Source of the DNA: Candidatus Nanohaloarchaea archaeon
Lineage (GTDB): Archaea; Nanohalarchaeota; Nanosalinia; Nanosalinales; Nanosalinaceae
Direction: 5' to 3'
Length of the DNA: 13,351 bases
Assembly: GCA_042218325.1 (NCBI GenBank)
Contig: JBDGRE010000007.1
Span: 1-13,351 of the forward strand
The number at the start of each line of letters is the position of its first letter. Position 1 is the stretch's first letter. Positions 1 to 13,351 of this stretch are shown here, piece after piece. The notes beneath the pieces were generated by a model, which worked only from the letters and a program-made list of their open reading frames with translations, was not told the DNA's origin and did no database searches. A program made the position numbers and the translations under genes.

Positions 1-913
1 CGTCCCAGTGCTGGTAAGGATTTGTCCCGTATCCTGATGCATCTACAGCTATCTGGGTTTCTACTTCATCCAACGGCTTCGCTGTTAGTTCCACAAGCTT
101 CTGTAGCAGCTTGTAGAGTTCTGGTTCGCTGTAAATGTTGTAGATGGTGTTGAAGTGCGGCACATCTTCGAGGTAATAGTCTTCCAGTTCTTCCAAGTCC
201 CCTACAAGGTCTCTTCCAGGTTTCCCTGTGTATTGATGGTAGAGTATGCAGAAAAGCTGGTCTCTGATACTGTAGCCGTTTGCTCCAAGCGACTGGTTTT
301 CTTGGTCCTGAACAGTTTTCGCTATTTCCGCAGCTATTCGCTTGAACATCGGTTTCTCGTTGGTCTTTGCTTCGTTGTAGGAAGACCAGTCTCTACCCTC
401 GTCCTCTGACTTATCATCCATATTTGAGATGTTTTCCTCAACTATAGATGGCTTATTTTTCTGTTCAAGCCCGTAGATAAGTTTACTGCTGCAGTTGTCC
501 TCGATGTAATCTGCGGTATGTTTAATGAGTCTTCGGATGTCTGGTGTTACCCGTTCTCTTTCAAATCTGCGTATGTTGGACTGTCCTGGCATACTTGTGA
601 GTGTAAATCCGAGGTCTTCTGCTATGTCAAGATGTGTTCTAATCTGTCTGCGAAGTTCCGATTTCTCCTGTATGCCCCTAACTTCCTTGTATACCAGGAA
701 TTTAACGAGTGCCATCGGCTCGGTTTCAATCATTTTCTGGCTGGTATACTGTTGATGGACACGCACTTTCAGAGGTCGTAGGTCAAGCAATTTCAGGAAC
801 TGGCTTACTCGAATATCTTCTCCAAGCTGGTTGAACTGCTGGTCTATCTCATCCTCTATCTTCTCTATATCCGTTTCAAAACCACTATCTCTGTCATCTC
901 TGAAGTCTTCCAT
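1..913 (-). CDS. IS5/IS4-like DDE transposase (DDE_Tnp_1 clan) with long N-terminal extension; runs off the window at its 3' end
   Basis: Not in the ORF track. Manual translation from ATG 913 is open for 304 codons: MEDFRDDRDSG...RDWSSYNEAKTNEKPMF...VPHFNTIYNI...LVELTAKPLDEVETQIAVDASGYGT. WxxYN, PHFNTI and AVDASG (first catalytic Asp, D291) are typical of IS5-like transposases. Confidence 0.85.
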   Translation of the reverse strand, partial: MEDFRDDRDSGFETDIEKIEDEIDQQFNQLGEDIRVSQFLKLLDLRPLKVRVHQQYTSQKMIETEPMALVKFLVYKEVRGIQEKSELRRQIRTHLDIAEDLGFTLTSMPGQSNIRRFERERVTPDIRRLIKHTADYIEDNCSSKLIYGLEQKNKPSIVEENISNMDDKSEDEGRDWSSYNEAKTNEKPMFKRIAAEIAKTVQDQENQSLGANGYSIRDQLFCILYHQYTGKPGRDLVGDLEELEDYYLEDVPHFNTIYNIYSEPELYKLLQKLVELTAKPLDEVETQIAVDASGYGTNPYQHWD

Positions 914-1471
914 TTAATGCTTCACCCGCTTGAAACCGTGTCCTTCTACCACGGAGTTTACTCGCCTCCAGAGTTTTGCTGTGACTTCGACATCTTGTTC
1001 GCAGTATTCGACTATCTCATCAATCTTACCTTGCTCGTATTTTTCTGGGACTGAACCGTTTTCCATCAGTTTTTCTTCTCCGAAGAAGAGTTTGATCCAG
1101 TCTTCCAGACCGCCTGAGTTGTTGCTGCTGTAGCGGTAGCCAACCTGTTTCATCACAGCCATCAGGTCTTCATACTGTGTGCGGAAGAATCCTCTGCCGT
1201 CTACTTGATGCAGTAAAGCTCGTGCGAAAATGAACCTGATGTCGAACAGGATATTGTAGCCGATTATGCAGTCAAAGTTTCTTCTACCGTAGAACTGGAG
1301 AAACTCCTCCAGCACTTCCTGCTCGTCCTCGGATTGGAAGCTGTAAGTCTTCTCCCTCTGCAAATCCTTCGCAACGATACAGATGATTCTGGACTCATAC
1401 GGCTGTAAGCCGTTAGTTTCGATGTCCAGAACCAACTCTCTCGAATATCGAGAGTCAATCGTTGGATTCAT
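914..1471 (-). CDS. Stand-alone DEDDy 3'-5' exonuclease (RNase H-like, PolB-exo/DnaQ-like)
   Basis: ExoI LDIETNG, ExoII IIGYNILFD and ExoIII EYCEQDV are all intact. Its TAA (916-914) directly abuts the transposase ATG (913). Confidence 0.9.
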   Translation of the reverse strand: MNPTIDSRYSRELVLDIETNGLQPYESRIICIVAKDLQREKTYSFQSEDEQEVLEEFLQFYGRRNFDCIIGYNILFDIRFIFARALLHQVDGRGFFRTQYEDLMAVMKQVGYRYSSNNSGGLEDWIKLFFGEEKLMENGSVPEKYEQGKIDEIVEYCEQDVEVTAKLWRRVNSVVEGHGFKRVKH

Positions 1472-1492
1472 ATTAGACTTGTTGTTGCCTAA

Positions 1493-1502
1493 CTTTTATA
1501 AA
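1493..1502 (-). promoter_or_regulatory. TATA box for the exonuclease-transposase transcript
   Basis: TTTATAAAAG on the minus strand 22-31 nt upstream of ATG 1471, consistent with an archaeal leaderless transcript. Confidence 0.6.
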
Positions 1503-1544
1503 GTCTTGATTCAGTCGTTGGATTTGCTCTTGATTCAGGCGAGG

Positions 1545-1553
1545 TTTAATAAG
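1545..1553 (+). promoter_or_regulatory. TATA box for the AbrB-wHTH pair
   Basis: TTTAATAAG 22-30 nt upstream of ATG 1575. Confidence 0.55.
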
Positions 1554-1574
1554 CGTATGATAGATATACTATAT

Positions 1575-1844
1575 ATGGTCAGCGAGTCCAACAAAGACGA
1601 TAAGCTGAAAGAAATCGAAGAAGCAATCGACTCCACAACCTCAATAATCGAAAAAACAGCGAAAGTAAGTAGTGATGGAAGACAAGTGCTGGTCAGATTC
1701 CCTTCAAAGATAAGTGAAGCTCTTGGAATTAAAAAAGGGGACAAAATAAAGTTTACAGCCGAAGTAGATAAAGAAAATCCCGAAAACAACGACCTAAAGG
1801 TCGAACATCAAAAGGTAGACGAAGATGACGAGAAGGAGAGCTAA
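1575..1844 (+). CDS. AbrB/MazE/SpoVT-family DNA-binding protein (89 aa)
   Basis: AKVSSDGRQVLVRFPSKISEALGIKKGDKIKF fits the swapped-hairpin pattern. Start moved from 1383 to ATG 1575, which avoids overlap with the exonuclease and lies behind a TATA box. Confidence 0.8.
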   Translation: MVSESNKDDKLKEIEEAIDSTTSIIEKTAKVSSDGRQVLVRFPSKISEALGIKKGDKIKFTAEVDKENPENNDLKVEHQKVDEDDEKES

Positions 1845-2037
1845 CTTCGACATATACGAAGAGAAGATACTGGAAGTCCTATACAAACACCCTGTATCTC
1901 TCAGCACATCAGAAGTTGCAGATAAAGCCGACATCGCCTGGGAAACAGCTAAAGATAGACTTGAAGATCTCTGGGAAGATCACTACATAGAAAGAGAAGA
2001 CAAAGGAAACAGCATAGAATGGTGGATCGAAGACTAA
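1825..2037 (+). CDS. Small winged helix-turn-helix protein
   Basis: KILEVLY...LSTSEVADKADIAWETAKDRLEDL...IERE...W is a wHTH pattern. It overlaps the AbrB gene by 20 nt. Confidence 0.8.
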   Translation: MTRRRANFDIYEEKILEVLYKHPVSLSTSEVADKADIAWETAKDRLEDLWEDHYIEREDKGNSIEWWIED

Positions 2038-2889
2038 TTATTTTTCAGCCAGAAAATCAGCGTGAACCCCCTTATCTTCCTTGAATACAGGATATTGAGA
2101 CCTCAAGGTTCGAGCCTGTTTAACTGACCATTCATTCCTGAGTCCAAGTTTCTTGCCTGCCTTCATCATAGGAACACCTATAAGACCTAAAGCACGCATC
2201 TTTTCAGCCGAAGGCTTTATTCTATCCCAGTGATCTACCATATCAATCTCGGTAAATCCTGTATCTCTCATCATCTCTTCAAATTCTTCATAATTTCTTC
2301 CTTCTGGTAGAGCCCAGCCTTCCAAAACATCTTCAATCTGCTTTCGGTCCTTTGAGGAATAATCTTGGACTTCAGGACTTTCTAAATCATAAGTTTCTCC
2401 AGTAAGCCAACCGTCAGATACCAAAATATTTCCTTCATCGTTAAGAACTCGATATGCTTCATTTAGAAACTCTTCTTTTGAATCAGAGTGCGAAACAGTT
2501 TCAATAGCAGCTATAGAATCAAAACTTTCTGAGTCGAATGGAAGATTATGGAAGTCTCCCTGTAAAAATTCAGTAGAGTCTTCAGTTCCTTTATTTCTGC
2601 TCATCTTTCTGGCTTTTCTGATGTGTCTATTGTTTAGGTCGAGACCATAAATCTCTGCATCTGTGTTTTCAGCCAAAAAGTTCGAAAATCCTCCTTTACC
2701 GCATCCGACAACTAGGACTTTATCTTCAGGAGAAATAGCTAATCTGTCCTGGTAATGCTGGTTGGAGTTCTCTATTGCTGTAGAATTAATATAGGAATCA
2801 AAACCGTAGTGCATCGTATCGTTACTCCAGAAAAACTCGTAGTCAAAGGCTGTAGAATCATATAAGTCATTAATGTCTTCAGAGTCCAT
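2038..2889 (-). CDS. Class I SAM-dependent methyltransferase, tocopherol/sterol-methyltransferase-like (283 aa)
   Basis: YEFFWSNDTMHYGF, motif I VLVVGCGKGG, GLDL, GDFHNLPFDSESFD, EAYRVL. Start moved to MDSEDIN (ATG 2889). Confidence 0.85.
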   Translation of the reverse strand: MDSEDINDLYDSTAFDYEFFWSNDTMHYGFDSYINSTAIENSNQHYQDRLAISPEDKVLVVGCGKGGFSNFLAENTDAEIYGLDLNNRHIRKARKMSRNKGTEDSTEFLQGDFHNLPFDSESFDSIAAIETVSHSDSKEEFLNEAYRVLNDEGNILVSDGWLTGETYDLESPEVQDYSSKDRKQIEDVLEGWALPEGRNYEEFEEMMRDTGFTEIDMVDHWDRIKPSAEKMRALGLIGVPMMKAGKKLGLRNEWSVKQARTLRSQYPVFKEDKGVHADFLAEK

Positions 2890-2941
2890 AACCTGTTTAG
2901 GGATAAATAATAATTTAAAATTGATTTGTATTTTGCTACTT
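2890..2941. promoter_or_regulatory. 52-bp divergent promoter region
   Basis: Central AT-only tract ATAAATAATAATTTAAAATT (2903-2922) lies at TATA distance from both ATG 2889 (-) and ATG 2942 (+). Confidence 0.6.
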
Positions 2942-4114
2942 ATGAATAGACACGACATAGTGGTTGTAGGTGCTGGACCTGCAGGTCTACAGTACGCCAG
3001 AGAACTTGCCGATGAGTATGATGTCGCTATTTACGAAAAAGATTCTGATATAACTGACAGAAAGAAGTCTACAGGCGGAACATTTCCAGAAATGATGGAA
3101 GAATTTAAGATTTCTGAAAGCCTTGCTATGGCGGAGACTGATGAAGTAGTTTTTATTTCACCTAATTCCGAATCAAGAGTAGATGTAGACGGATATGTAT
3201 TAGAATATGGAGATTTTCTTGAATACCTCTCTGAAGAAGCTCAAAACCAAGGAGCAGAACTAAATTTAAACTCAAATGTTACAGGTTACGACACAGATAC
3301 AAAAGGGGATATAAACTCCATTAATGTAGACGGGAGAGAAGTTGAAGCAGATTTATTTGTTGATGCTTCTGGACCTGAAGCAGTAATCGCACAAGACTAC
3401 CTCGGTTTAAATCCAAATGAAGACGATAGATGGATAGGGGTAGAGCAGGAACTACGAGGAGGGGATTATGATGGACAAATGGTGTTCGAGTTTGGTGATG
3501 TAGCTCCTGGAGGCTATGCTTGGGCTTTTGACGCAGGAGAAAACACCAAAGTAGGAGTTTGCTGGTCCAAAGAATTTTTCAGAAAACAAGATGGTGAAGG
3601 AACACTTCAAGACTACCTGCAAGACTGGATAGCACAACTCGAACTTGAAAATAACAGCGTGGAAGAAGTTCACGCAGGTAGTGCGTTCTCATATCCGTTT
3701 GATGTGGATAGGTCTGATGAAAGATTCCTTGCAGTAGGAGATACTGTAGCAAGTATTAATCCTCTGCTTTTGGAAGGTATAAGACCAGGTATGCAGTCTG
3801 CAAGGTATGCTGCAGAGATAACAGATGAAGCAATGGAACAAGGTGATTTATCTGCGAGAAACTTGCAGGGATACGACCAAAAATGGGACGAAGAAAAAGG
3901 CAAGAGCTTTAGAAAACAAAAACTTGCCCAAGAGCTTATCTACCAGCTTGATGATGACAGGTTAGACCAAACTATTGATAATGTGGCAGAACTTGATGAT
4001 GAATTAGTAGAAGACTTCGTTCACTACGATCTTGACCTACGAGATATGTGGAAAATTTATCCTTCGCTTAAAGCAAGAGACTTGATTAGAGTAGGAAGAT
4101 TTCTGTCTAAATAG
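2942..4114 (+). CDS. Geranylgeranyl reductase-family FAD oxidoreductase (digeranylgeranylglycerophospholipid reductase-like, 390 aa)
   Basis: VVVGAGPAG, KSTGGTF, VDASG, APGGYAWAF (YxWxF motif), KVGV, AVGD...INPLLLEGI. Start moved to ATG 2942. Confidence 0.88.
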   Translation: MNRHDIVVVGAGPAGLQYARELADEYDVAIYEKDSDITDRKKSTGGTFPEMMEEFKISESLAMAETDEVVFISPNSESRVDVDGYVLEYGDFLEYLSEEAQNQGAELNLNSNVTGYDTDTKGDINSINVDGREVEADLFVDASGPEAVIAQDYLGLNPNEDDRWIGVEQELRGGDYDGQMVFEFGDVAPGGYAWAFDAGENTKVGVCWSKEFFRKQDGEGTLQDYLQDWIAQLELENNSVEEVHAGSAFSYPFDVDRSDERFLAVGDTVASINPLLLEGIRPGMQSARYAAEITDEAMEQGDLSARNLQGYDQKWDEEKGKSFRKQKLAQELIYQLDDDRLDQTIDNVAELDDELVEDFVHYDLDLRDMWKIYPSLKARDLIRVGRFLSK

Positions 4115-4118
4115 AGAA

Positions 4119-4397
4119 TTAGAAATCTTCAAGCTTTCTTTCTCCTAAATCTTCTTTTCTGTCCAGAAACTTATCTTTCAGTGATTGGCTTAATGCTCCG
4201 AATAGCTGTGTAAAGTGGGTTTCTCCTACTTGTTCTGATTCTTTCTTAAAGCGGTCAAAGCTCGCAGCCAATTTCAAAGCTGATTCTTTATTTGTAGAAT
4301 TAAGCTTGTCAGCCGTTTTCTCCAAGAAGAATGTTTCAAGTTCTGCTTTCTTGTCTCTGTCTTCGGTTTCCAGTAGTTCCTCAAATTTTTCCTGCAT
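4119..4397 (-). CDS. Hypothetical charged helical protein (92 aa)
   Basis: E/K-rich composition and tight convergent packing (4-bp gap) with the reductase stop. No recognisable motif. Confidence 0.6.
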   Translation of the reverse strand: MQEKFEELLETEDRDKKAELETFFLEKTADKLNSTNKESALKLAASFDRFKKESEQVGETHFTQLFGALSQSLKDKFLDRKEDLGERKLEDF

Positions 4398-4409
4398 ATC
4401 TCTGAATTA

Positions 4410-4471
4410 TTGTGCGAAGGTTGATATTTTTGTGCAAAAATTGTGCAGAAGGGGAGGGTTTGTGCAAAGCC
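4410..4471. repeat. Four TTGTGCRRA repeats; candidate transposon end
   Basis: TTGTGCGAA 4410, TTGTGCAAA 4430, TTGTGCAGA 4441, TTGTGCAAA 4460. The cluster ends in TTTGTGCAAAGCC (4459-4471). Confidence 0.75.
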
Positions 4472-4990
4472 GCCTTCAAGAATGATGTAATTGGCGGCCA
4501 TGTCGAGATTGGCATCGGCCGCACCGAGGTCGGAAACGTTCACGTCGGATTGGGCTATCGAAAGATCTGACCAACCTATCGAAGAAGTATCCAGAGCCGC
4601 TTTAGGGACGTAACCGGCGCTTGTGTCCCAGACAGTCGTCCCGCTATCCACGATGTCGTGGCCGTTGATATCGTTCCCGTTGGAAAGCACGTCGCTGAGT
4701 GTCCCGGTTCCGCCGCCTCCGCTTGAGGATGCCAGCGGGATGAAACTGGAGACCGGTGAGGCGAGAGCGAGACCTCCGGCACCGAGACCGAGCATCTTGA
4801 GGAAGCTGCGGCGGTCGAGAGAACCATCGGAATCGTCTCCCTCGGTCTCGGACAGCTCCTGTAGCTTCTCCTCTATCTTCCGCGAGATGTAGTCGTCGCC
4901 AGTGTCTTCACCGGACAGCTTCTCGTGGAGCTTCTCCTCGACCTTCTGGTCGACTATCTCCTCGATTTTTTCCTCAGAATCCTCCGGCAT
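4472..4990 (-). pseudogene. Tat-motif fibre-like surface protein paralog A, 3'-truncated
   Basis: N-terminus is near-identical to 8235-9392 (DRRSFLKMLGLGAGGLALA). After ...ADANLDMAANYII the frame reads through the repeat cluster into basic, non-halophilic sequence overlapping 4119-4397, with a stop at 4274. Confidence 0.7.
4626..4972. repeat. 347-bp direct repeat, copy 1
   Basis: Identical by eye to 9028-9374 (offset 4402). Looser similarity continues through the start codon and promoter. Confidence 0.95.
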
Positions 4991-5018
4991 CTGGCTAACG
5001 GTAAGTTGTCTGCGGTTG

Positions 5019-5036
5019 TTTAAGAATTTCCCGGGG
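5019..5036 (-). promoter_or_regulatory. BRE/TATA-like promoter of paralog A
   Basis: CCCCGGGAAATTCTTAAA, matched by CCCCGGGAGCTTCTTAAG (9439-9422) at nearly the same distance upstream of the intact paralog. Confidence 0.6.
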
Positions 5037-5038
5037 CT

Positions 5039-5995
5039 CTAGATGTAGCCCATGTCCTGCAGCTGGTCCTTTGCCGCTTCTTTCTCCGCGTCGACGCCGC
5101 CCTCGCCGTACTCCCGGGCCTGTTCTTCCGCGTCCTCGGTGCAGCACTCCGCGTCCGTATGCCTGTAACCTTGGTCGTAAAGCTCCGGGTACGAGACGGA
5201 CTCCATCTTGATGTAGGCCCAGACGTTGGCCTCCTCCCAGTTCTTCAGCGGGTTGACGCGGGTGTACTCCGCGGGTTCCTCCTTTTCCTCGACCAGCTCG
5301 ATTTCAGGCTCCTTGTCCTCTCCCTGGGCTATCATGTCGCCGCCGCGTATGCCGGCTATCATGGTGTCGAAGCCGTGTTCCTCCCTGAACCGCTTCAGCG
5401 GGATGACCTTCAACGCGCCGCAGGACTCGGGCACGCCCCACTCCTCAGGCTTCAGGTTCTGGCGCTGGACCGGCTTCAGCTTGGTGTTCGTCCCGCAGTC
5501 GCCGCACTCGACCCGTTTCTCCCTCTCGTTCAGCTCCGCGATTTCTCCGCAGGCAGGGCATTTCCATTCTCCTGTATGCTCGCCGTGGTAGCCTCGCGGG
5601 TCGTACTCGTTGCGTATGATGTTGTCGAGGAACTCCTCGTACTTCTCTATGATTATCTGGTTTCCTATGCCGTTGAACGGGCCTACCGTATCCGCGCCCC
5701 GGTCGCCGGAGTCCTCCGCGAAGTCGCGGCGGAACTCGTACATCTCATCGAACTGGTTGCCGGTATCGATAACACCGAAAGGCACCGGGGAGACGCCCTC
5801 GTTAGGTCCGATCTCGTACAGAAGCAGGTCGGCGATGACCTGCGCCTCCTTGCCGCCGGTCCAGAGGAAGACGGTGTCGCCTTCATCTTCTTCGACTACC
5901 TCTTCAAGGGTGTCGATGGCCTCCTGTATCAGCGTAGTCTGTGAACCTTCTCCGGGTACGGGCGTCTTCATCGACGGCCGGGAGTTCCAGGTCAT
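5039..5995 (-). CDS. PAPS reductase-family protein, CysD (sulfate adenylyltransferase subunit 2)-like, with Zn-ribbon insertion
   Basis: PP-loop-like WTGGKEAQV, IDTGNQFDEMYEFR, RVNPLKNWEEANVWAYI, LYDQGY, C-terminal LQDMGYI. SD GGGGGTGA lies 6 nt upstream and there is an ATGA overlap with the upstream gene. Confidence 0.8.
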   Translation of the reverse strand: MTWNSRPSMKTPVPGEGSQTTLIQEAIDTLEEVVEEDEGDTVFLWTGGKEAQVIADLLLYEIGPNEGVSPVPFGVIDTGNQFDEMYEFRRDFAEDSGDRGADTVGPFNGIGNQIIIEKYEEFLDNIIRNEYDPRGYHGEHTGEWKCPACGEIAELNEREKRVECGDCGTNTKLKPVQRQNLKPEEWGVPESCGALKVIPLKRFREEHGFDTMIAGIRGGDMIAQGEDKEPEIELVEEKEEPAEYTRVNPLKNWEEANVWAYIKMESVSYPELYDQGYRHTDAECCTEDAEEQAREYGEGGVDAEKEAAKDQLQDMGYI

Positions 5996-7338
5996 TTCGT
6001 GTCACCCCCGAGCTGGGCCTCGATGTTCTCGTGTGCGAGTTCGACCTCGTCCTTCGTCCACTGCTTGACCTGCTCGGGCTGCAGCGGCGACTCCGTGACT
6101 TCGAGCCCGATGAAGTCTGTTATTATGTCGTACATGTCCTCCGGCTTGATGGTCTCCTTGTCAGGTATGTTCAGCTCTTTCGTGGCGCCGAAGCACGCCT
6201 CGCGGTCGTGGACCCCGGTCCTGTAGTAACCCATGCCTATCGGGTTCTCGTGGAGGTTGCCGGAGACGAACACTCCTTCTTTCCTGTCCGGGATGATATC
6301 GGGAACGCTCTCGTAGAAGTCCGCATCCTCGTCATAAAGCTCCCATTTGTACTTGACCGACCGGTACATGCCCGTGTCCATCAGCTCCTCGCGGAACTTC
6401 TCCTCGTTGAAATCCTTGCGGTCGACCAAGAGAGTGAGGCAGGAGTCGAACGGGTCGGCGCACACGACCTGCGAGTTCTCCTCTATCAGTTTTACACCGG
6501 GCCGGCCGAAAGTGAACTGGTTCTCCACGCGTTCGTTGACGGGGTGCATCTCGCCGCCCTGGTACTCTGTAAGCGTGTCGATGAAGTCGTAGTCGACCTT
6601 GTAGTCAAGCCAGCCCTCCTGCTTCAGCCACCTGTTTACGCGGAAAGTGTGGGTTAACTCGGTCTGGCCGTGGTCGCTGAAGAACATCAGGTCACCGTCT
6701 ATCTGGTTGTCTATCTCGGAAAGCAGTGACTGGATGTGGTCGATGAGGTGCTGCCTGTAAGGCTTGCCATTGCGGGTTTCTGTGTGCTGGAAGTGGCAGT
6801 AACTGTCGACCAGCCGGTAGCCGAGGAACACCACGTCGAACTCCTGGTGTCTCATCACCTCCTTGGCCCGGGTGAAGAAGTTCCGGGTCTGGTCCAGGAA
6901 GCTGCTGTACGTGGTGTCGGGATGGTCTCTTATCATGTCGCTCGCCGGCGCCGGCACGTTCACCAGCTGCGCGCCCTCCTGCGGGACGGTCTGCGACGCT
7001 CCCTGCAGAGCATCACCGTGAAGGATCGAGCCCTCGTTCCCGCTCTGGAAAGGAATCGAGAAAGGCATTCCCATCGCAAGAACCCGCTGGCCGTCCCTGA
7101 CCGCCTGGTCGATGAACGTCGACTTCCGGGGCCGCGTCGTCTGCTCGCCGCCGAACTTCGACACCTCCATCATACCGTTCTCCGCTGGGTTCAGTCCAGT
7201 ATAAATCGAGCTCATCACCCGCGGCGTGACACGCGGCACATCCGCGTCCATCTCGCCCTTGTGGATCTCCTCTAAGAAACCGTTCAGCTCCCGTGGAGAG
7301 AGTGCATCGATGAAAACAACAACATCCGTATCAGACAG
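5992..7338 (-). CDS. Alkaline phosphatase superfamily protein (type I phosphodiesterase/nucleotide pyrophosphatase-like), probable CTG start, 448 aa
   Basis: VVVFIDAL (upstream of ATG 7251), Thr nucleophile region PRVTPRVMSSIYTG, VDSYCH, FFSDHG, TGVH. SD AGGTGA lies 6 nt before CTG 7338. Confidence 0.85.
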   Translation of the reverse strand: MSDTDVVVFIDALSPRELNGFLEEIHKGEMDADVPRVTPRVMSSIYTGLNPAENGMMEVSKFGGEQTTRPRKSTFIDQAVRDGQRVLAMGMPFSIPFQSGNEGSILHGDALQGASQTVPQEGAQLVNVPAPASDMIRDHPDTTYSSFLDQTRNFFTRAKEVMRHQEFDVVFLGYRLVDSYCHFQHTETRNGKPYRQHLIDHIQSLLSEIDNQIDGDLMFFSDHGQTELTHTFRVNRWLKQEGWLDYKVDYDFIDTLTEYQGGEMHPVNERVENQFTFGRPGVKLIEENSQVVCADPFDSCLTLLVDRKDFNEEKFREELMDTGMYRSVKYKWELYDEDADFYESVPDIIPDRKEGVFVSGNLHENPIGMGYYRTGVHDREACFGATKELNIPDKETIKPEDMYDIITDFIGLEVTESPLQPEQVKQWTKDEVELAHENIEAQLGGDTK

Positions 7339-7481: not shown

Positions 7482-7895
7482 TCAAGCGATATTTTCGCCT
7501 GCCGAGTATGAAAGTATGGCCTGAATCGAGCTACCGCCAGTTGGTATAACACCACCGTTTTTCTTCAGAGACCCATTACTTCCGCCACTATCCCCTGAAC
7601 CAGCCCAACCACTAGCAATCGCACTTGTGGCAACTGCGTGTCTCTGTCCTTTCTGGTTAATTGTGAATCCTCTTGTAGCTATCGTTGTCTCCGTGGAAAC
7701 CCTGATTGTCACCCCAAGTTGCTCGCTTCCTGTCCGTCGACTCTGTCGGCGTCCAGTCCGCCCGCGTCCAATCCAAGCATTTCATAAACGACCGTATCAA
7801 CTATCTTAGAAATTCCGGACCTTAGCTCCTCGATACGCTCCTGCTTGTCTATCTTGACCTCAAGCTTCTAGAACCTGCTCTTCAGAATCCGGCAT
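7482..7895 (-). pseudogene. Decayed Tat-motif fibre-like paralog B
   Basis: MPDSEEQV / KLEVKIDKQERIEEL / RSFMK+MLGLDAGGL-DADRVDGQEASNLG / VTIRVSTETTIA... pieces lie in shifting frames and match paralog C motifs (MPEESDE, RSFLKMLGLGAGGL, GLDADTVDGKEASSL). Confidence 0.75.
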
Positions 7896-8234
7896 CTAAA
7901 ATCTGGAATTGGTTTCTCTGCAGCGAATAAAAACTTGGCTCAGACGAATTTCAGATTGAGAAATAACAATCTTTGGCCGGCCTTTTTTCCTCAACCCATC
8001 ATTGACTTGAGGTAGCTGCCCGTCAGCTCGAGCAGCCTCTTCAGCTCGATAATACCGGCCAAAAATAGGGTATTAAATGAATAACGCTTCAGGAGGACTA
8101 ACTAATCCTCATCAGCTGTTAATGCTATACAAATTTTCCAATAGAATAGGCGCTTAGCACAGAATTTTGAGGCTTGATAAAACAACAAATAATTACATTT
8201 ACTACAAGCACCAATTAAAAGACTCCATCGGCAT

Positions 8235-9392
8235 CTAAATAATCCGATTCTGGCCTATCTTTATTGTGCCGCTAACTGGTCCCCCAGGGTTATTATCGAT
8301 CACCTTTACACTGCTATTGAAATAAGCAGTTGCGTAATCGAAAGCTACCGAATTACTTGAGCTAGCGTGTATTTTCCAAGTTATCGTCGCGCTTGTGAGG
8401 GAAGGCACATTATTATCAGTTACTTTGCCCAAAGTGCCGCGAGGAGCTATGCTGCCGCTGCCGACTAGATTACCGTTATAATAGAAATATCCTCTGGCAG
8501 ACCCACTGAAAGTTATACCGATGTTGCCGCCAATATAACCGCTCATATTTTTAATTACCCTTGTTGTTGTGGTAGTTCCCGTAAAACCATCAGTGGAAGG
8601 ACCGACATAACCGAAATCTTCCGTGAACTTCATGGTTGTAGTAGTAGTAGTAGGAGATGCTCCTGGTTCGATTTTGAATGTTTCAGCAGGGTTGGGAGTA
8701 GCTATACTTTTCGCAGTAAGGGAGATGAGACTGTTAGAAGTGGACGTGCCCACCAAGCTTCCATTTCTGTACCATACTCCTTTAGCAGTACCGCTATTGA
8801 CCGAAAACCTCGCTCTATCGAAAATAACATCATTGAGATTAGTTGTGAAAGTATAGGTTTTACCTGTTGAAATCACCTTCGAAGCTACATCAGTAAAGAC
8901 AACCTGGCCGTTCGCATCCCTCTTAACTTTGGCTCTTTCCAAACTACTAGCCTCTTTACCATCAACTGTATCAGCATCAAGTCCAGCGGTCTGAACCACA
9001 CTCGAAGGTATGTGGCCAGCGCTCGTATCCCAGACAGTCGTCCCGCTATCCACGATGTCGTGGCCGTTGATATCGTTCCCGTTGGAAAGCACGTCGCTGA
9101 GTGTCCCGGTTCCGCCGCCTCCGCTTGAGGATGCCAGCGGGATGAAACTGGAGACCGGTGAGGCGAGAGCGAGACCTCCGGCACCGAGACCGAGCATCTT
9201 GAGGAAGCTGCGGCGGTCGAGAGAACCATCGGAATCGTCTCCCTCGGTCTCGGACAGCTCCTGTAGCTTCTCCTCTATCTTCCGCGAGATGTAGTCGTCG
9301 CCAGTGTCTTCACCGGACAGCTTCTCGTGGAGCTTCTCCTCGACCTTCTGGTCGACTATCTCCTCGATTTTTTCGTCGGATTCCTCTGGCAT
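8235..9392 (-). CDS. Tat-motif fibre/adhesin-like surface protein paralog C (intact, 385 aa)
   Basis: Acidic N-terminal ~58 aa, RRSFLK + hydrophobic stretch, GLDADTVDG motif (common in viral tail fibres), T/S/G/N-rich beta-type C-terminus. Start set at MPEE (ATG 9392) by homology with paralog A. Confidence 0.8.
   Translation of the reverse strand: MPEESDEKIEEIVDQKVEEKLHEKLSGEDTGDDYISRKIEEKLQELSETEGDDSDGSLDRRSFLKMLGLGAGGLALASPVSSFIPLASSSGGGGTGTLSDVLSNGNDINGHDIVDSGTTVWDTSAGHIPSSVVQTAGLDADTVDGKEASSLERAKVKRDANGQVVFTDVASKVISTGKTYTFTTNLNDVIFDRARFSVNSGTAKGVWYRNGSLVGTSTSNSLISLTAKSIATPNPAETFKIEPGASPTTTTTTMKFTEDFGYVGPSTDGFTGTTTTTRVIKNMSGYIGGNIGITFSGSARGYFYYNGNLVGSGSIAPRGTLGKVTDNNVPSLTSATITWKIHASSSNSVAFDYATAYFNSSVKVIDNNPGGPVSGTIKIGQNRII
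9028..9374. repeat. 347-bp direct repeat, copy 2
   Basis: Identical by eye to 4626-4972. Confidence 0.95.
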
Positions 9393-9609
9393 GTAAACTA
9401 TCCATAAGTTGGTCGCGCTCACTTAAGAAGCTCCCGGGGACTTCAGTGATCGCTTCATGCCAGTACGCTCAGGCCCTGTATCCCTCCGAAGTTCCGGTCG
9501 ACAAGACATCGCCAGATCACGTTATGAGGGCGCCGTAAAACACCAAATATATCCATAAATAGGCGAATCTTGGAAAAATTACTTAAATTTTGGAGTTAAA
9601 CCAGATTAC

Positions 9610-9783
9610 ATGCCGATAGAAGCCGAAGACGGAAGGGTATACATCCCGAAGGACCTGCGGGATAGAATGGGTTCGAGGTTTGAGCTGATAGACAGGGATG
9701 ACACGCAGACAGTTCCTCAAAACAACAGGCCTTGGAGCCGCCGCAATAGGAGTTCTCGCAGGAACACCGGCCTCCGCACTTAA
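9610..9783 (+). pseudogene. Truncated AbrB/MazE-type antitoxin-like gene reading out of frame into the next gene
   Basis: MPIEAEDGRVYIPKDLRDRMGSRFELIDRDD (GRVYIPKDLR AbrB motif), then Arg-rich out-of-frame sequence. TATA-like ACTTAAAT at 9581-9588. Confidence 0.65.
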
Positions 9784-9970
9784 CATCCGGGACAGTGAAG
9801 GCCTCAAGGTCTTCAGCGACGGCACAGAAAGAATGAGTTCCGCGGCCGGCCAGCCCTTCAAGATAAATGCCTCAAATCTCCATGTCCTGGATGGGGATAT
9901 AGAGGTAGGTCACAACTCAGGCGGCGATATAAGAATCACAGGTTCCCTGACAGAAGGAGCAAGTCTGTGA
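9698..9970 (+). CDS. Small Tat-signal secreted protein (90 aa)
   Basis: MTRRQFLK + hydrophobic region + ASA cleavage site, followed by a beta-rich mature part. Confidence 0.75.
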   Translation: MTRRQFLKTTGLGAAAIGVLAGTPASALNIRDSEGLKVFSDGTERMSSAAGQPFKINASNLHVLDGDIEVGHNSGGDIRITGSLTEGASL

Positions 9971-9986
9971 TCTGTTTCTGCTTGTC

Positions 9987-10082
9987 CTAGCCTTCAACAT
10001 GGTACCATTTTCCAGGTATTGTGTGGACTGAGGAGTTGCTGGGTGTTTGCCAGCCGACTGCTAAGCCGTCTCCTCCGCTTCC
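9987..10082 (-). pseudogene. Remnant resembling the C-terminus of a PA14 carbohydrate-binding domain
   Basis: GSGGDGLAVGWQTPSNSSVHTIPGKWYHVEG* with no start codon; resembles the GGGDxLxVxWxxP...IP end of PA14 domains. Confidence 0.45.
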
Positions 10083-10195
10083 TCACGCAAATTCCCCTCC
10101 TTGTCGCTCCACTTCTCCTTAACCTCATCAACGAAGTCCTTCGGAGAGCCAAGTTCGTTATCTTCCAGACCTAGACCTGATAAACTCAAACTCAT
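10061..10195 (-). CDS. Short acidic ORF or gene fragment (44 aa)
   Basis: MSLSLSGLGLEDNELGSPKDFVDEVKEKWSDKEGNLREEAEETA has halophile-like composition. It is below the ORF-track cutoff. Confidence 0.35.
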   Translation of the reverse strand: MSLSLSGLGLEDNELGSPKDFVDEVKEKWSDKEGNLREEAEETA

Positions 10196-10239
10196 AATGA
10201 TAAAGGCTAGTGAATACTCACTTCACACCAACCACAACC

Positions 10240-10246
10240 AAAAAAA
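10240..10246 (-). terminator. Possible oligo-T terminator downstream of the adhesin gene
   Basis: T7 run on the minus strand within a G/T-skewed tract that has further T5 runs. Confidence 0.3.
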
Positions 10247-10314
10247 GGCAATCCTCCCATCTCCAAAAAGTTAAAAACCCCTTCCTCCTGATAAAACCAC
10301 TCCAACCCGCCAAC

Positions 10315-10407
10315 TCACCCCACAACCTTTACCTTATCGAAAAACATAGTCAACGAAACACTGTTATGGTTATCATGGCTGACCTGATACAGTAGGAATA
10401 AGCTCCT
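10315..10407 (-). pseudogene. Orphan C-terminal lectin-like strands in frame behind the adhesin stop
   Basis: After TGA TAA the same frame reads RSLFLLYQVSHDNHNSVSLTMFFDKVKVVG*, similar to the internal domain end SVSRRMFFDVQKLVAG. Confidence 0.4.
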
Positions 10408-10410
10408 TTA

Positions 10411-13272
10411 TCACTGATTCAGACTTTTCATATCAAATTGATACACAAGATTATTTTGATTCGATCCTACCTGATGTCTCCCAACAATTACCTCATAGGC
10501 AGGATTATTGTAATTGCTGCTTGTATAGGTATATGCGCCGTTATCAATATTTACTTTCCAAGCTGAACCTGTCCAGCTTAACTTTATAGTATGAGTTCCC
10601 GACGATGCATCAATACCCGAATCATGGTAAGCACTCTGGTAGTCCCTCCAACCAGGATTACAAACTCCCGCATCATACACTGCAAATCTTTGAGTCCCAT
10701 ACTGGAAACCAACATTCATGATCTCACACCCACTCGAGTCCTGCAACTTGATTAAATTCCAGTGGCGATCCGATTGAGTAGAACCAGACCCCGAAACTGA
10801 ATCCATCGAATACTCAAACTCGAAGGTCCTCTGGGTTCCAGAACTGTATGAGAAATTTACTCCAGCATGATCAGGTATACTGTTATCCATAACGATATCG
10901 TACATCTCCCCTTTCGACTCATCTATAGACACCGACTCAGGGGTATTATCCACACTGTAGGAATCAGAGGTCGTGAATATATTCAAAACAGTATCAGAAG
11001 AAGTCTTCCTCTCATTCCCGTTCGCATCAATATAGTGAAGCATACTGTTCTCAATCCAGACGTTTCCTGGTGAAGCACCATTACTAACAGAACTTGCTAT
11101 ACCCTTAATCCAAATTTGATGAAGCGTGTCATAATTATCGCTGTCAGGGTAATCGTCACATTCCCACCTTGAACCACTTCCCCCTGGCTCTCCTATTGAC
11201 CAGTGATAGTTTGCACTATTATACATAGGGAATCTTGGCCCAAATAATGCAGGACTTGGTTCGGTTTCTCCTGTGTCTGCTCCTGCAGCATCTGGGAGAT
11301 TGCCGGAATGCTCGGGTAGCTTGGAGGAATCATTAGCTACTGAAACATACGAAACAGTTGTTGAATCGTCCAGAACCCCTTGAATGGCGTCAGGATCTTT
11401 ATTTATATAATGAACAACTCGGTTATGGTTGCTTGTTTCACATCTGAATCTTAAGGCCTTAATATTGTTTTGCGAGTAACCAAATCTGGATAAATCATCT
11501 TGGTGTGATAGCGCTCCATGACTTAGAGGCCATTGGTCTTCGGTAGGAGCTGGATCTGTATTCGCCTCGTGATCATAATTATAGATCAGAGTCCAACCAC
11601 TTCCCGATACTCCCATATCACAGTAGACCTTTTGAATTTCTGACTCATCGTTATTTGGATCAACGAAGTAAGTTCCATCTTTCGCAGAAGGTATATTTTG
11701 ATAAATCTGGTTACAGCTCAATGCAGGATTCTCCTGAGAACCAAGTTCCGGCTCCCCGACTAAAGCCCTCTCGTAACCGTTCTGGTCAATCCAGTGCATC
11801 GCCGAGCCTTCTATCCACCACGCACCGGTCGGCCCACCCGTCTTCGAACCCGCTCCCTGGTACAGTTGCTGGACTTCCTGCTGGGACAAGGCGCGGCTGT
11901 AGACACGGACCTCGTCTATTTTGCCTGCGAAATAATCTGGACCTCCGCCCCATCTTCCCAAATTCGTAGACCCTATCTTAGTATTCAAAGATCTCGACTT
12001 AGACTTAATGAGAGAACCATCATAGTATATCCTAAAGGTGCTCCCATTATAGGTGTAAGTTTGGTGGTGCCATCCGGTATAGGAGCCAGAAATACAGTAA
12101 TCTATATCAGCACTCCCCCATAATTGAGCTCTCCAGCAACCCGATCCAGCCCCCTCCCTCAAGGTCATAGCAAAATCTTCGCCGTCAGTTCCAGTTTTAC
12201 CTAGTGTGATTATACTGCCTCGGCTATCAGAATTCGCCTCATCAACCTTGTACCAAGCTGTAACTGTTCTAGCCTTACTCCCTGTGACAGCAGCACTATC
12301 CGGAATGTCCACATAATCATTACCGTCAAAGCTCAACGCATCATCAAACTTTCCCGTGGTCCAGGAGGGGTCGCTGGTTTCCGACGATGTTGATCCTCCC
12401 CTAGTTCCATCATTATTCCAGCCTGAATCATCAACTACAGTCTGTCCAGATCCGGAATCAAGATGGAAGTTGGCTCTAACACTTCCCGCAACAAGCTTTT
12501 GGACATCGAAAAACATTCTGCGCGATACACTACCTTTAGAATTTACGTTTGCACCAACTCCAATCCCACCTGAAGACATTATATTCGAGTCCGTGAAAGA
12601 CGTTTCGAGAGTCCAACTGGAGCTGCCAGGTTCCTTCGTATAAAAACTATGAGTATCTCCCGATACCACAATCTTCCAATCGCACCATTCTCCGTTAACC
12701 CCTGAACAGCCTGAAAAAGAACCAGAATCGATATTAGTCTTGGTGCCGCCTGAAAAATAGGAAATAGCCCAGCTTCCTCCGCCACCACCGCTACGGATAT
12801 AATAATAATTACCGGTATCCTGTCTTCTGTAAACTATCCCTCCATCAGCGTAATTTTCCCCGCTTGGCTTCTTAAAGGAGCCTGAATACACGAAGTTTTT
12901 GACAAACACTCTTTTTTCCAAAGTTATAATGGCTTCTTCACTCACTGAATTAGCATCTATATCAACCACATTTCCTGTAGTTCCATCAGGCTGGGTCACA
13001 CTGTTTATAGATGCAGAACCAACACCATTGTGCGACCACGAAGGATCTTGTGAATAATCTCCATCACTGAACCTATCAGATACAACAGAATTCGATAAAG
13101 ATTTGGATAACCAGTACTCCGTACTTCCATCCGCCCAGTGGAGGCTTGAGCCTTCGATCCAAAGAGAGCCTTGAGGGGCAGCTGAGTTAGAAGTAGAACT
13201 GAGTGAAAAAGCTGCAGCAGAGACAAACAGTATTAGAGCCAGTAAAAAGAAGGACTTATGTCTAGTACGCAT
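10411..13272 (-). CDS. Large secreted mosaic adhesin: ConA-like domain, LamG-like jellyroll, fibrinogen-like (YCDM) domain, C-terminal ConA-like domain (953 aa)
   Basis: Signal peptide MRTRHKSFFLLALILFVSAAAFS. LamG motifs ALSFDGNDYV, WHHQTYTYNG, FAGKIDEVRVYSRALS. Fibrinogen-like SCNQI...DGTYFVDP...VYCDM...GWTL. Three W-I-E repeats. Confidence 0.88.
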   Translation of the reverse strand: MRTRHKSFFLLALILFVSAAAFSLSSTSNSAAPQGSLWIEGSSLHWADGSTEYWLSKSLSNSVVSDRFSDGDYSQDPSWSHNGVGSASINSVTQPDGTTGNVVDIDANSVSEEAIITLEKRVFVKNFVYSGSFKKPSGENYADGGIVYRRQDTGNYYYIRSGGGGGSWAISYFSGGTKTNIDSGSFSGCSGVNGEWCDWKIVVSGDTHSFYTKEPGSSSWTLETSFTDSNIMSSGGIGVGANVNSKGSVSRRMFFDVQKLVAGSVRANFHLDSGSGQTVVDDSGWNNDGTRGGSTSSETSDPSWTTGKFDDALSFDGNDYVDIPDSAAVTGSKARTVTAWYKVDEANSDSRGSIITLGKTGTDGEDFAMTLREGAGSGCWRAQLWGSADIDYCISGSYTGWHHQTYTYNGSTFRIYYDGSLIKSKSRSLNTKIGSTNLGRWGGGPDYFAGKIDEVRVYSRALSQQEVQQLYQGAGSKTGGPTGAWWIEGSAMHWIDQNGYERALVGEPELGSQENPALSCNQIYQNIPSAKDGTYFVDPNNDESEIQKVYCDMGVSGSGWTLIYNYDHEANTDPAPTEDQWPLSHGALSHQDDLSRFGYSQNNIKALRFRCETSNHNRVVHYINKDPDAIQGVLDDSTTVSYVSVANDSSKLPEHSGNLPDAAGADTGETEPSPALFGPRFPMYNSANYHWSIGEPGGSGSRWECDDYPDSDNYDTLHQIWIKGIASSVSNGASPGNVWIENSMLHYIDANGNERKTSSDTVLNIFTTSDSYSVDNTPESVSIDESKGEMYDIVMDNSIPDHAGVNFSYSSGTQRTFEFEYSMDSVSGSGSTQSDRHWNLIKLQDSSGCEIMNVGFQYGTQRFAVYDAGVCNPGWRDYQSAYHDSGIDASSGTHTIKLSWTGSAWKVNIDNGAYTYTSSNYNNPAYEVIVGRHQVGSNQNNLVYQFDMKSLNQ

Positions 13273-13351
13273 CTGTTCCCACCGGTATTTGGAAGCTTTG
13301 AGTTGCGTTGGCGTTTCTAATCTCATTCCCGTTCATATCAAGGTCTCCGCC
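13262..13351 (-). CDS. 3' end of an upstream fibre-like gene (partial)
   Basis: GGDLDMNGNEIRNANATQSFQIPVGTDAY*. DLDMNGNEI resembles NLDMAANYI of paralog A. It overlaps the adhesin start by 11 nt. Confidence 0.7.
   Translation of the reverse strand, partial: GGDLDMNGNEIRNANATQSFQIPVGTDAY

Follow-up and report, generated by a model that had tools for sequence, protein, structure and literature searches.

The window, by which we mean the whole stretch of 13,351 bp that was analysed, is the entire contig C33 of G000, a 1.07-Mb draft genome of a nanohaloarchaeon comprising 35 contigs. Its first 4,471 bp carry a DDE transposase gene which runs off the contig start, six further genes packed tightly behind it, and a cluster of short repeats that terminates at position 4471; beyond this position lies the 5' part of a host gene for a predicted secreted protein, here called paralog A. 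The guanine-plus-cytosine (GC) content rises from 0.414 (window 1-4471) to 0.593 (4472-7251) and, when resolved by stretch, from 0.36-0.40 at 4051-4500 to 0.59-0.61 at 4501-4950, the step being placed between 4351 and 4650; the large contigs of G000 mostly exhibit 55-58% GC. An original prediction, made from the letters of the window alone, had described all of these features at the places where we find them, and had suggested that 4471 is the upstream end of a cargo transposon. It is this element, its boundaries, its relatives and its possible mode of operation with which the present analysis is concerned.

The evidence that carries the identification of the element comes from a second contig of G000. 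In the window the repeat cluster closes with ...TTGTGCAAAGCC at 4471, and a search of the genome for the end motif yields a single other site, located on contig C10. There, C10:3-155 encodes 51 residues matching transposase profile positions 440-490; the transposase stop codon is followed by ...TTGTGCAAAGCC at C10:168-179, the 12 terminal nucleotides of which are identical to window positions 4460-4471, and this end is in turn followed by CTTGAAGGC, a perfect 9-bp duplication representing the reverse complement of window positions 4472-4480. Across the duplication the frame of paralog A runs on, in phase, for 166 further codons (C10:189-686). In the window, the open reading frame (ORF) of paralog A (4274-4990, - strand) takes its last 65 codons from the low-GC transposon end, and the homolog of paralog A in G017 is uninterrupted through the equivalent point. 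Thus 4471 is indeed the upstream end of a transposon inserted in paralog A, and the inverted end past the transposase stop, the target duplication in the neighbourhood of 4472-4485 and the missing part of the interrupted gene were all found as anticipated, on another contig. Draft genomes in which a contig ends abruptly and the GC content jumps can thus be resolved by searching the other contigs for the duplicated target.

If the transposase comprises 490 residues, 402 nt between C33 and C10 are unassembled, and the whole element, consisting of window 1-4471, these ~402 nt and C10:1-179, measures about 5,052 bp, in accordance with the proposed size of more than 4.5 kb; likewise, the end had been expected about 3.5 kb from the transposase start, and the distance is 3,558 bp. 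Read in transposase orientation, the order is: 5' part of paralog A, 9-bp duplication, left end, orf92, reductase, methyltransferase, two regulators, exonuclease, transposase, right end, 9-bp duplication, 3' part of paralog A. One DDE transposase gene and six other genes are hence located inside one pair of inverted ends. Neither a second transposase nor a second copy of the transposase N-terminus is present in G000, and nowhere else in the window is there a second end-like site, even when up to 2 mismatches are allowed, so that no pair of terminal inverted repeats surrounds the transposase gene alone.

Further copies were identified in a comparison set of 70 genomes of the phylum and in metagenome contigs, where the scan yielded a single close locus, L005, and three distant ones which were left out (L006-L008, 27-31%); a scan of genome contigs returned the G032 contig only. 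The L005 element (7521-11497; 3,977 bp, 6 genes) is complete, with ends of 15 perfect nucleotides, GGCTTTGCACAATAA, and the 9-bp duplication TTTGACACC. In G065, which belongs to another genus, the element (L024, 6410-9493) is a 3,084-bp deletion derivative flanked by the duplication AAAAAAAGA. A perfect 9-bp duplication is thus present in all three elements with both ends (CTTGAAGGC, TTTGACACC, AAAAAAAGA), and both elements whose two ends lie on one contig, those of L005 and G065, enclose cargo, as the original prediction would have it. Taken together, four left and six right ends share the terminus beside differing flanks; nine of the ten ends listed start GGCTT(T)GCACAA, the exception being that of the distant relative in G032 (GACCTTGCACAA). 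TGCACAA-type repeats are located at about 6, 25, 36 and 56 nt from the left tip and at 6, 28 (inverted) and 46 nt from the right tip; these subterminal positions are conserved in all copies, those on the left in four ends, and left and right are arranged differently. The count of the motif in the window alone is not unusual (three copies of TTGTGCA, all within 4430-4466; 1.25 expected, and 27 of 200 shuffles reach three). In L005, by contrast, where both ends carry the cluster, the number is unusual (6 matches, 1.46 expected, reached in 0 of 200 shuffles). A viral contig collection contained 41 isolated matches to the 15-nt end motif but never two as a pair, and we ascribe them to chance.

Based on this evidence, we have high confidence that window 1-4471, the unassembled bases and C10:1-179 form one IS5-family transporter insertion sequence (IS) inserted in paralog A. 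Transporter IS (tIS) are described (PMC9330008) as IS derivatives which carry passenger genes inside one pair of inverted repeats.

Table 1. Features of the element and of the adjoining insertion site in the window.
Feature	Positions	Strand	Evidence or remark
Transposase, first 304 of about 490 residues	2-913	-	DUF772 29.7 bits vs cut-off 23.1; open at contig end
Predicted DEDDy 3'-5' exonuclease, stand-alone, 185 residues	914-1471	-	PF10108 44.6 bits (cut-off 24), PF13482 38.3 bits
Divergent spacer between exonuclease-transposase genes and regulator genes	1472-1571	.	direct repeats TCTTGATTCAG at 1504 and 1528
AbrB/MazE-like protein, 90 residues from inner ATG	1572-1844	+	long ORF start 1383
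Winged-helix DNA-binding protein, 70 residues	1825-2037	+	HTH_24 28.4 bits
Class I S-adenosylmethionine-dependent methyltransferase, 283 residues from inner ATG	2038-2889	-	Methyltransf_31 83.2 bits; long ORF to 2958
Flavin adenine dinucleotide-dependent oxidoreductase, geranylgeranyl-reductase type, 390 residues from inner ATG	2942-4114	+	long ORF start 2873
orf92, acidic, first gene at left end	4119-4397	-	family-less, conserved
Left transposon end	4398-4471	.	terminal inverted repeat 4460-4471 (GGCTTTGCACAA on - strand)
Target-site duplication, one copy, 9 bp	4472-4480	.	GCCTTCAAG on +; second copy C10:180-188
Paralog A 5' part, 173 codons, predicted secreted protein	4472-4990	-	3' part at C10:189-686

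The placement of the element in the IS5 family, and in particular next to IS903, requires qualification. There are six full-length transposase relatives of 490-491 residues, at 60-95% identity. The IS5-family model NF033579 (cut-off 140 bits) is matched by P0001, an intact relative of 490 residues, with 148.3 bits and by the L005 transposase with 153.7 bits; the relative in G032 remains below the cut-off (121.5 bits), and the 304-residue fragment of the window, taken alone, gives no match to this model at 1e-5, because most of the catalytic domain lies off the contig. P0001 carries D, D and a Y-x2-R-x3-E-x6-K pattern, presumably the Y-R-E-K signature. The match to the model spans transposase residues 174-464 only, and these proteins of 490-492 residues possess an extra N-terminal region of ~170 residues, a rare region for which only 12 relatives (E up to 0.001) were detected among 1.84 billion representative proteins; the six of them that were scanned, all longer than 440 residues, are DDE_Tnp_1 proteins. 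The IS1182 family was considered as well and rejected (NF033551, 74.4 bits vs a cut-off of 270). A closed genome of the same genus, G001, holds only a 78-residue remnant of the transposase family (C1:31153-31386).

IS of the IS903 group of IS5 generate a 9-bp duplication, have ends starting GGC (GGCTTTG...), and are ~1 kb in size with a transposase of ~300 residues as their only gene. As a reference we used the nearest plasmid-borne IS, namely ISPam2 from plasmid pAMI5 of Paracoccus aminophilus and an unnamed IS on a Vibrio alginolyticus plasmid. These measure 1,051 and 1,054 bp, contain a single gene for 305-310 residues (NF033579, 363-366 bits) whose product is 23-26% identical to the long transposase, and end GGCTTTGTTGC; for ISPam2 the 9-bp duplication is GACCTGAGC. 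The type of end that the original prediction had given for the IS903 group is therefore seen on two 1.05-kb plasmid IS, one of them with a 9-bp duplication. The name 'IS903-type' is used here both for IS with such GGCTTTGTTGC ends and for the end features of the element described here. The element agrees with IS903-type IS5 in the terminal heptamer GGCTTTG (GGCTTTGTTGC... there, GGCTTTGCACAA... here), in the 9-bp target duplication, in having NF033579 as best NCBIfam model, and in DDE chemistry. It disagrees in size and gene number (~5.05 kb with six further genes, instead of a ~1-kb single-gene IS), in the length of the transposase (about 490 residues instead of ~300), and in the several subterminal repeats which are arranged unlike at left and right. 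The proposed assignment to IS5 thus holds as far as the family model, ends and duplication are concerned, whereas with a 490-residue transposase the element is not a plain member of the IS903 group.

The genes between the ends can be divided into a conserved and an exchangeable set. Conserved inside are orf92, the winged-helix gene, the AbrB-like gene, and the exonuclease gene with its stop codon adjoining the transposase start. What varies is the slot separating orf92 from the regulators, which contains reductase and methyltransferase, reductase alone, other genes, or nothing. L005 shares with the window orf92 (74% identity), the winged-helix (89%) and AbrB-like (87%) genes as well as the transposase (491 residues, 64% identical over the window's part), but its slot is occupied by a 157-residue family-less protein and a 298-residue protein with a RamC_N match. 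The G065 derivative retains orf92 (84%), reductase (93%), methyltransferase (97%), the end of the winged-helix gene and transposase residues 316-491 only. In G044, from another family, a left end of identical type stands beside DNA of 54-59% GC, and orf92 (83%), reductase (89%) and winged-helix gene (100%) are present without the methyltransferase. A community contig from sequencing run X5 likewise lacks the methyltransferase and joins 2033 to 2932, with a matching spacer.

What the slot carries in G000 can be stated with unequal precision. The reductase appears closest to haloarchaeal digeranylgeranylglycerophospholipid reductase, though far below cut-off (NF041385 235.8 bits, cut-off 700; TIGR02032 141.1 bits, cut-off 158.8; GGR_cat 24, cut-off 27). 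For the methyltransferase no NCBIfam model reaches its cut-off, and the protein is generic. Of the 'isoprenoid-modifying' cargo that had been predicted, the reductase may therefore be retained, its scores being below the curated cut-offs, and the methyltransferase not. PADLOC yielded generic matches only (DEDDh for the exonuclease, mad2 for the methyltransferase), which are not read as a defence system. The AbrB-like protein matches TIGR01439 weakly (17 bits vs a cut-off of 28.3), and its Atlas leads (0.87-0.89) point to MazE_antitoxin clusters. orf92 finds no match in Pfam, NCBIfam, PADLOC or PHROGs and no usable match in the Atlas.

The distribution of the cargo fits a recent horizontal spread of the element. 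Cargo-bearing copies are 89-97% identical at the protein level across three genera and two families, and the G065 element and that of the window share 93.7% nucleotide identity over 2,531 bp, while the single flanking host gene that was compared shows 71-72% protein identity between these genera. Reductase matches at 1e-30 occur in 13 of the 70 genomes, and apart from those in G065 and G044 all have 40% identity or less.

Several relatives deserve mention in their own right. A compact relative without passenger genes in G035 (L032, C4:8432-10160) adjoins tRNA-Ser and displays the order orf92-like (29%), winged-helix (42%), AbrB-like (39%) and exonuclease (93% identical to that of the window); this mix of 93% and about 40% identities suggests that modules may have been exchanged between elements. 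In G032, L004 (C56:1-4220) is a low-GC block (35-44%) with exonuclease, transposase and two family-less ORFs of 272 and 277 residues, which runs off the contig start, so that the element again lies at a contig end.

Among the explanations that compete with a transposon capable of movement, the one that survives best accepts the insertion as real but considers the copy in G000 dead, its transposase being broken in the unassembled part and the element being a fixed genomic island. About 135 transposase codons are indeed unseen, many relatives contain stops or deletions, and G000 has a single copy. On the other hand, both visible parts of the transposase are open, the 304 residues in the window being 95% and the part on C10 94% identical to the intact P0001, and Logan contigs of the community provide indications of recent movement. 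Run X1, which holds 95% of the sampled words and may be the source sample, shows a depth of 45-70 over window positions 1-680 compared with 23.3 over the rest of the element, and in this stretch a pair of variant contigs overlaps. If the community contains two variants of the transposase, the assembly would break inside that gene, as it does here. A 3,747-bp Logan contig covers 700-4446 with zero differences, and in two further Logan contigs (X1, X5) the match to the window stops exactly at 4472, where other DNA takes over. The two transposase variants and the occurrence of the same end at another site in X1 suggest recent movement within the community, and we consider it unlikely that the copy is dead. 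Stretches without cover in runs X2, X3 and X5 were excluded from interpretation.

A different objection would be that the window contains an ordinary transposase-only IS beside an older low-GC island, with the genes in 914-4471 outside the mobile unit. IS5 elements of this type usually carry only a transposase, as do the plasmid relatives of 1,051 and 1,054 bp, and the genes that separate orf92 from the regulators are not the same in L005 as in the window. But the exonuclease stop adjoins the transposase start and leaves no room for an end, the window offers no end-like site besides 4460-4471, the ends and 9-bp duplications of L005 and G065 enclose extra genes, and the duplication on C10 pairs with 4472-4480 and not with a site near 913. 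This makes a transposase-only unit very improbable. Equally hard to sustain is an artefact of assembly or binning, in which foreign low-GC DNA would have been joined at about 4471 to a 59%-GC contig. The GC step is sharp, the 35-contig draft has several other low-GC contigs, and the 323-bp Logan contig of run X1 that bridges the junction (4417-4739) exhibits 18 differences, though its coverage of 4470-4490 speaks for a true junction by the standard of the original prediction. Such a chimera, however, would not give a perfect 9-bp duplication on a second contig together with paralog A in frame, and in G044, G032 and G065 as well this low-GC end borders on host DNA of high GC. Finally, an integrated plasmid or virus remnant which merely contains an IS, its 5-kb unit having moved by site-specific integration, might be proposed in view of the low GC, the small regulators, the polymerase-like exonuclease with PHROG viral matches and the tRNA genes adjoining the relative in G035, yet it has next to no credibility given that 1-4471 contains no integrase, replication or capsid gene, that the boundaries are inverted repeats and 9-bp duplications at unrelated targets instead of att sites, and that no transposase relative was found in the viral contig collection.

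For the transporter IS itself, a number of observations weigh on the other side. (i) The connection of C33 with C10 is deduced, not assembled, and with about 135 codons of this copy's transposase unseen, the gene may be broken. (ii) The element is present in a single copy in G000; transposase matches occur in 7 of the 70 genomes and are mostly fragments or interrupted by stops, so that the element is at most putatively active at present. (iii) The sole listed contig bridging 4471 differs at 18 of 323 letters, and the empty-site alleles for which the original prediction had hoped were not seen among the Logan contigs listed, which drop rare variants. (iv) The argument for horizontal transfer rests on one host gene. 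(v) The G035 relative, with its 93% identical exonuclease, has no TGCACAA motif. (vi) The L005 element persists without exonuclease. (vii) The AbrB-like assignment and the reductase subfamily both lie below curated cut-offs.

Gene 914-1471 is predicted to encode a DEDDy 3'-5' exonuclease which resembles the corresponding domain of PolB; its matches among the PHROGs are to DNA polymerases of viruses. Its motifs D16-x-E18, N73-x2-F-D77 and Y156-x3-D160 presumably correspond to Exo I, II and III, and D16, E18, D77, Y156 and D160 are invariant or nearly so in 10 aligned sequences. The exonuclease stop adjoins the transposase ATG in the junction TAAATG, and the order exonuclease-then-transposase is repeated in G032, with identities of 53-54% for the exonuclease and 35-39% for the transposase; it recurs as well in G035, whose contig ends 88 bp past the 93% identical exonuclease. 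Of this gene L005 retains five codons at the start and some 40 bases at the end, with the stop-ATG junction kept, and about 500 bp have therefore been deleted there. These arrangements suggest that the exonuclease may be functionally linked to transposition, be it in end processing, in gap repair, or merely through coupled expression. A complex prediction for transposase and exonuclease (score 0.00, mark 0.32) gave no answer and counts for neither side. A database fragment of 208 residues, P0007, contains the exonuclease C-terminus and the transposase N-terminus in one frame, with a sense codon at the position of the window's exonuclease stop; being a single record, it could be an error. A distant exonuclease homolog in G006 (L033, C40:1409-5883), located about 1.2 kb from a transposase fragment, was rejected as part of the same module, its 29% identity being too distant; two frames at that locus, of 481 and 766 residues, are read as putative type I restriction-modification genes.

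The remaining genes are likewise packed closely. The AbrB-like and winged-helix genes overlap by 20 bp, the winged-helix stop and the methyltransferase stop are separated by 0 bp, and the stops of reductase and orf92 lie 4 bp apart. Two short spacers separate divergent genes, namely 1472-1571 and, with the inner ATGs taken as starts, 2890-2941. The former is conserved with L005 and represents a candidate promoter and operator region.

By analogy with IS903-type elements, the following mode of operation can be envisaged. The transposase would bind the terminal repeat and, probably, the subterminal TGCACAA repeats, move the whole segment, and join it to a target cut with a 9-bp stagger. The arrangement of long protein and multiple repeats makes it conceivable that the extra N-terminal domain is what contacts the subterminal repeats. 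Judging from gene order, the AbrB-like and winged-helix proteins may regulate the exonuclease-transposase operon from the 1472-1571 spacer, and the region between orf92 and the regulators might serve as a slot for the exchange of passenger genes. The exonuclease, its translation possibly coupled to that of the transposase, could assist transposition or repair, and it would be dispensable for persistence, because the L005 element persists without the gene. One may go further and ask if the element is the founding member of a family of archaeal cargo transposons which have a coupled, in one variant fused, exonuclease and multi-site asymmetric ends recognised via a lineage-specific N-terminal domain, which regulate themselves through their AbrB-like and winged-helix pair, and which move lipid- or quinone-modifying enzymes in their slot between genera and families of Nanohaloarchaeota; in this full form the proposal is possible but rather doubtful. 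Nanohaloarchaeota presumably obtain their membrane lipids from their hosts.

Among described systems, tIS come closest, having a single IS-type transposase and genes unrelated to transposition within one pair of ends; passengers inside a single pair of ends are therefore lost only by transposition-independent events. The element described here differs in that its host is a DPANN archaeon, and in that it possesses a conserved accessory set (orf92, two regulators, exonuclease) besides the exchangeable slot. Composite and Tn3-family transposons of bacteria are similar in carrying cargo, in spreading between taxa and, in some cases, in possessing regulators, but here there is no flanking pair of IS, one transposase gene and at the left end a repeat only, and there is neither a Tn3-type transposase or resolvase nor a 5-bp duplication. 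Casposons, self-synthesizing transposons of archaea and bacteria with Cas1 and a family B polymerase, are likewise mobile in archaea and combine inverted ends and target duplications with a gene related to PolB; in contrast, the present element has a 185-residue exonuclease domain only, without polymerase or Cas1, and its integrase is a DDE transposase.

In the literature searched, ISfinder not being covered, there is no described example of a tIS of the IS5 family or from archaea, and likewise, supplements not being covered, neither this element nor an IS5 transposon linked to an exonuclease is described. The main text of a preprint on nanohaloarchaeal mobile elements (10.1101/2025.02.15.638363) does not contain 'transpos', 'IS5' or 'exonuclease', and its supplements might list such elements. 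A survey of thaumarchaeal mobile elements from 2019 states that cargo-carrying DNA transposons were undetected in archaea (PMC6563490). What is new is hence the combination, in DPANN archaea, of a long transposase, multi-repeat ends, an exonuclease-containing accessory set and exchangeable cargo; the tIS class itself is known.

A cargo transposon whose limits and target duplications are defined at single-base resolution, present in DPANN archaea having genomes of about 1 Mb, provides a concrete vehicle for gene exchange among these symbionts. In bacteria, DNA transposons with cargo are among the main routes by which genes spread. Moreover, the system is compact, with 12-15-nt ends and one transposase, and might be tried out in the genetic manipulation of halophilic archaea, and it represents a natural test of a 3'-5' exonuclease as an accessory factor of transposition.

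Some observations on the remaining host DNA may be added. tRNA and Rfam scans of the window gave no match. Contigs C3, C20, C21, C26 and C27 of G000 have 42-46% GC, and the proteins of the element have no relative on them; mis-binning or mobile DNA of another kind may explain these contigs. Of the 138 N-terminal residues of paralog A, 126 are identical in paralog B (8235-9422), and a 5' block of about 425 bp, which includes ~46 bp upstream of the start, is 94.8% identical between the two (4614-5036 and 9016-9439). Past residue 138 their C-terminal parts are unrelated and of lower GC, an arrangement suggestive of a common secretion leader behind which the C-terminal modules have been exchanged. 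An ortholog of paralog A, with its C-terminal part as query, was not found in the closed genome G001. The TAT_signal match of paralog A is weak (16.5 bits vs a cut-off of 22.7), and the TatC gene (PF00902, 2.3e-53) in C10:1002-2477, just downstream of the 3' part of paralog A, fits such a twin-arginine signal; the same stretch carries a HEPN and nucleotidyltransferase pair (PF05168, PF01909). At 10411-13326 (- strand) the window encodes a 971-residue protein with a Laminin_G_3 domain (88.6 bits) and brief stretches matching collagen and the fibrinogen C-terminal domain, to which protein three weaker paralogous stretches exist on contig C29. Two giant open frames at C2:70126-78267, of 1,253 and 1,273 residues as read, one of them crossing a stretch of N, contain a module 42-44% identical to paralog A residues 136-173 and are probably large surface proteins.

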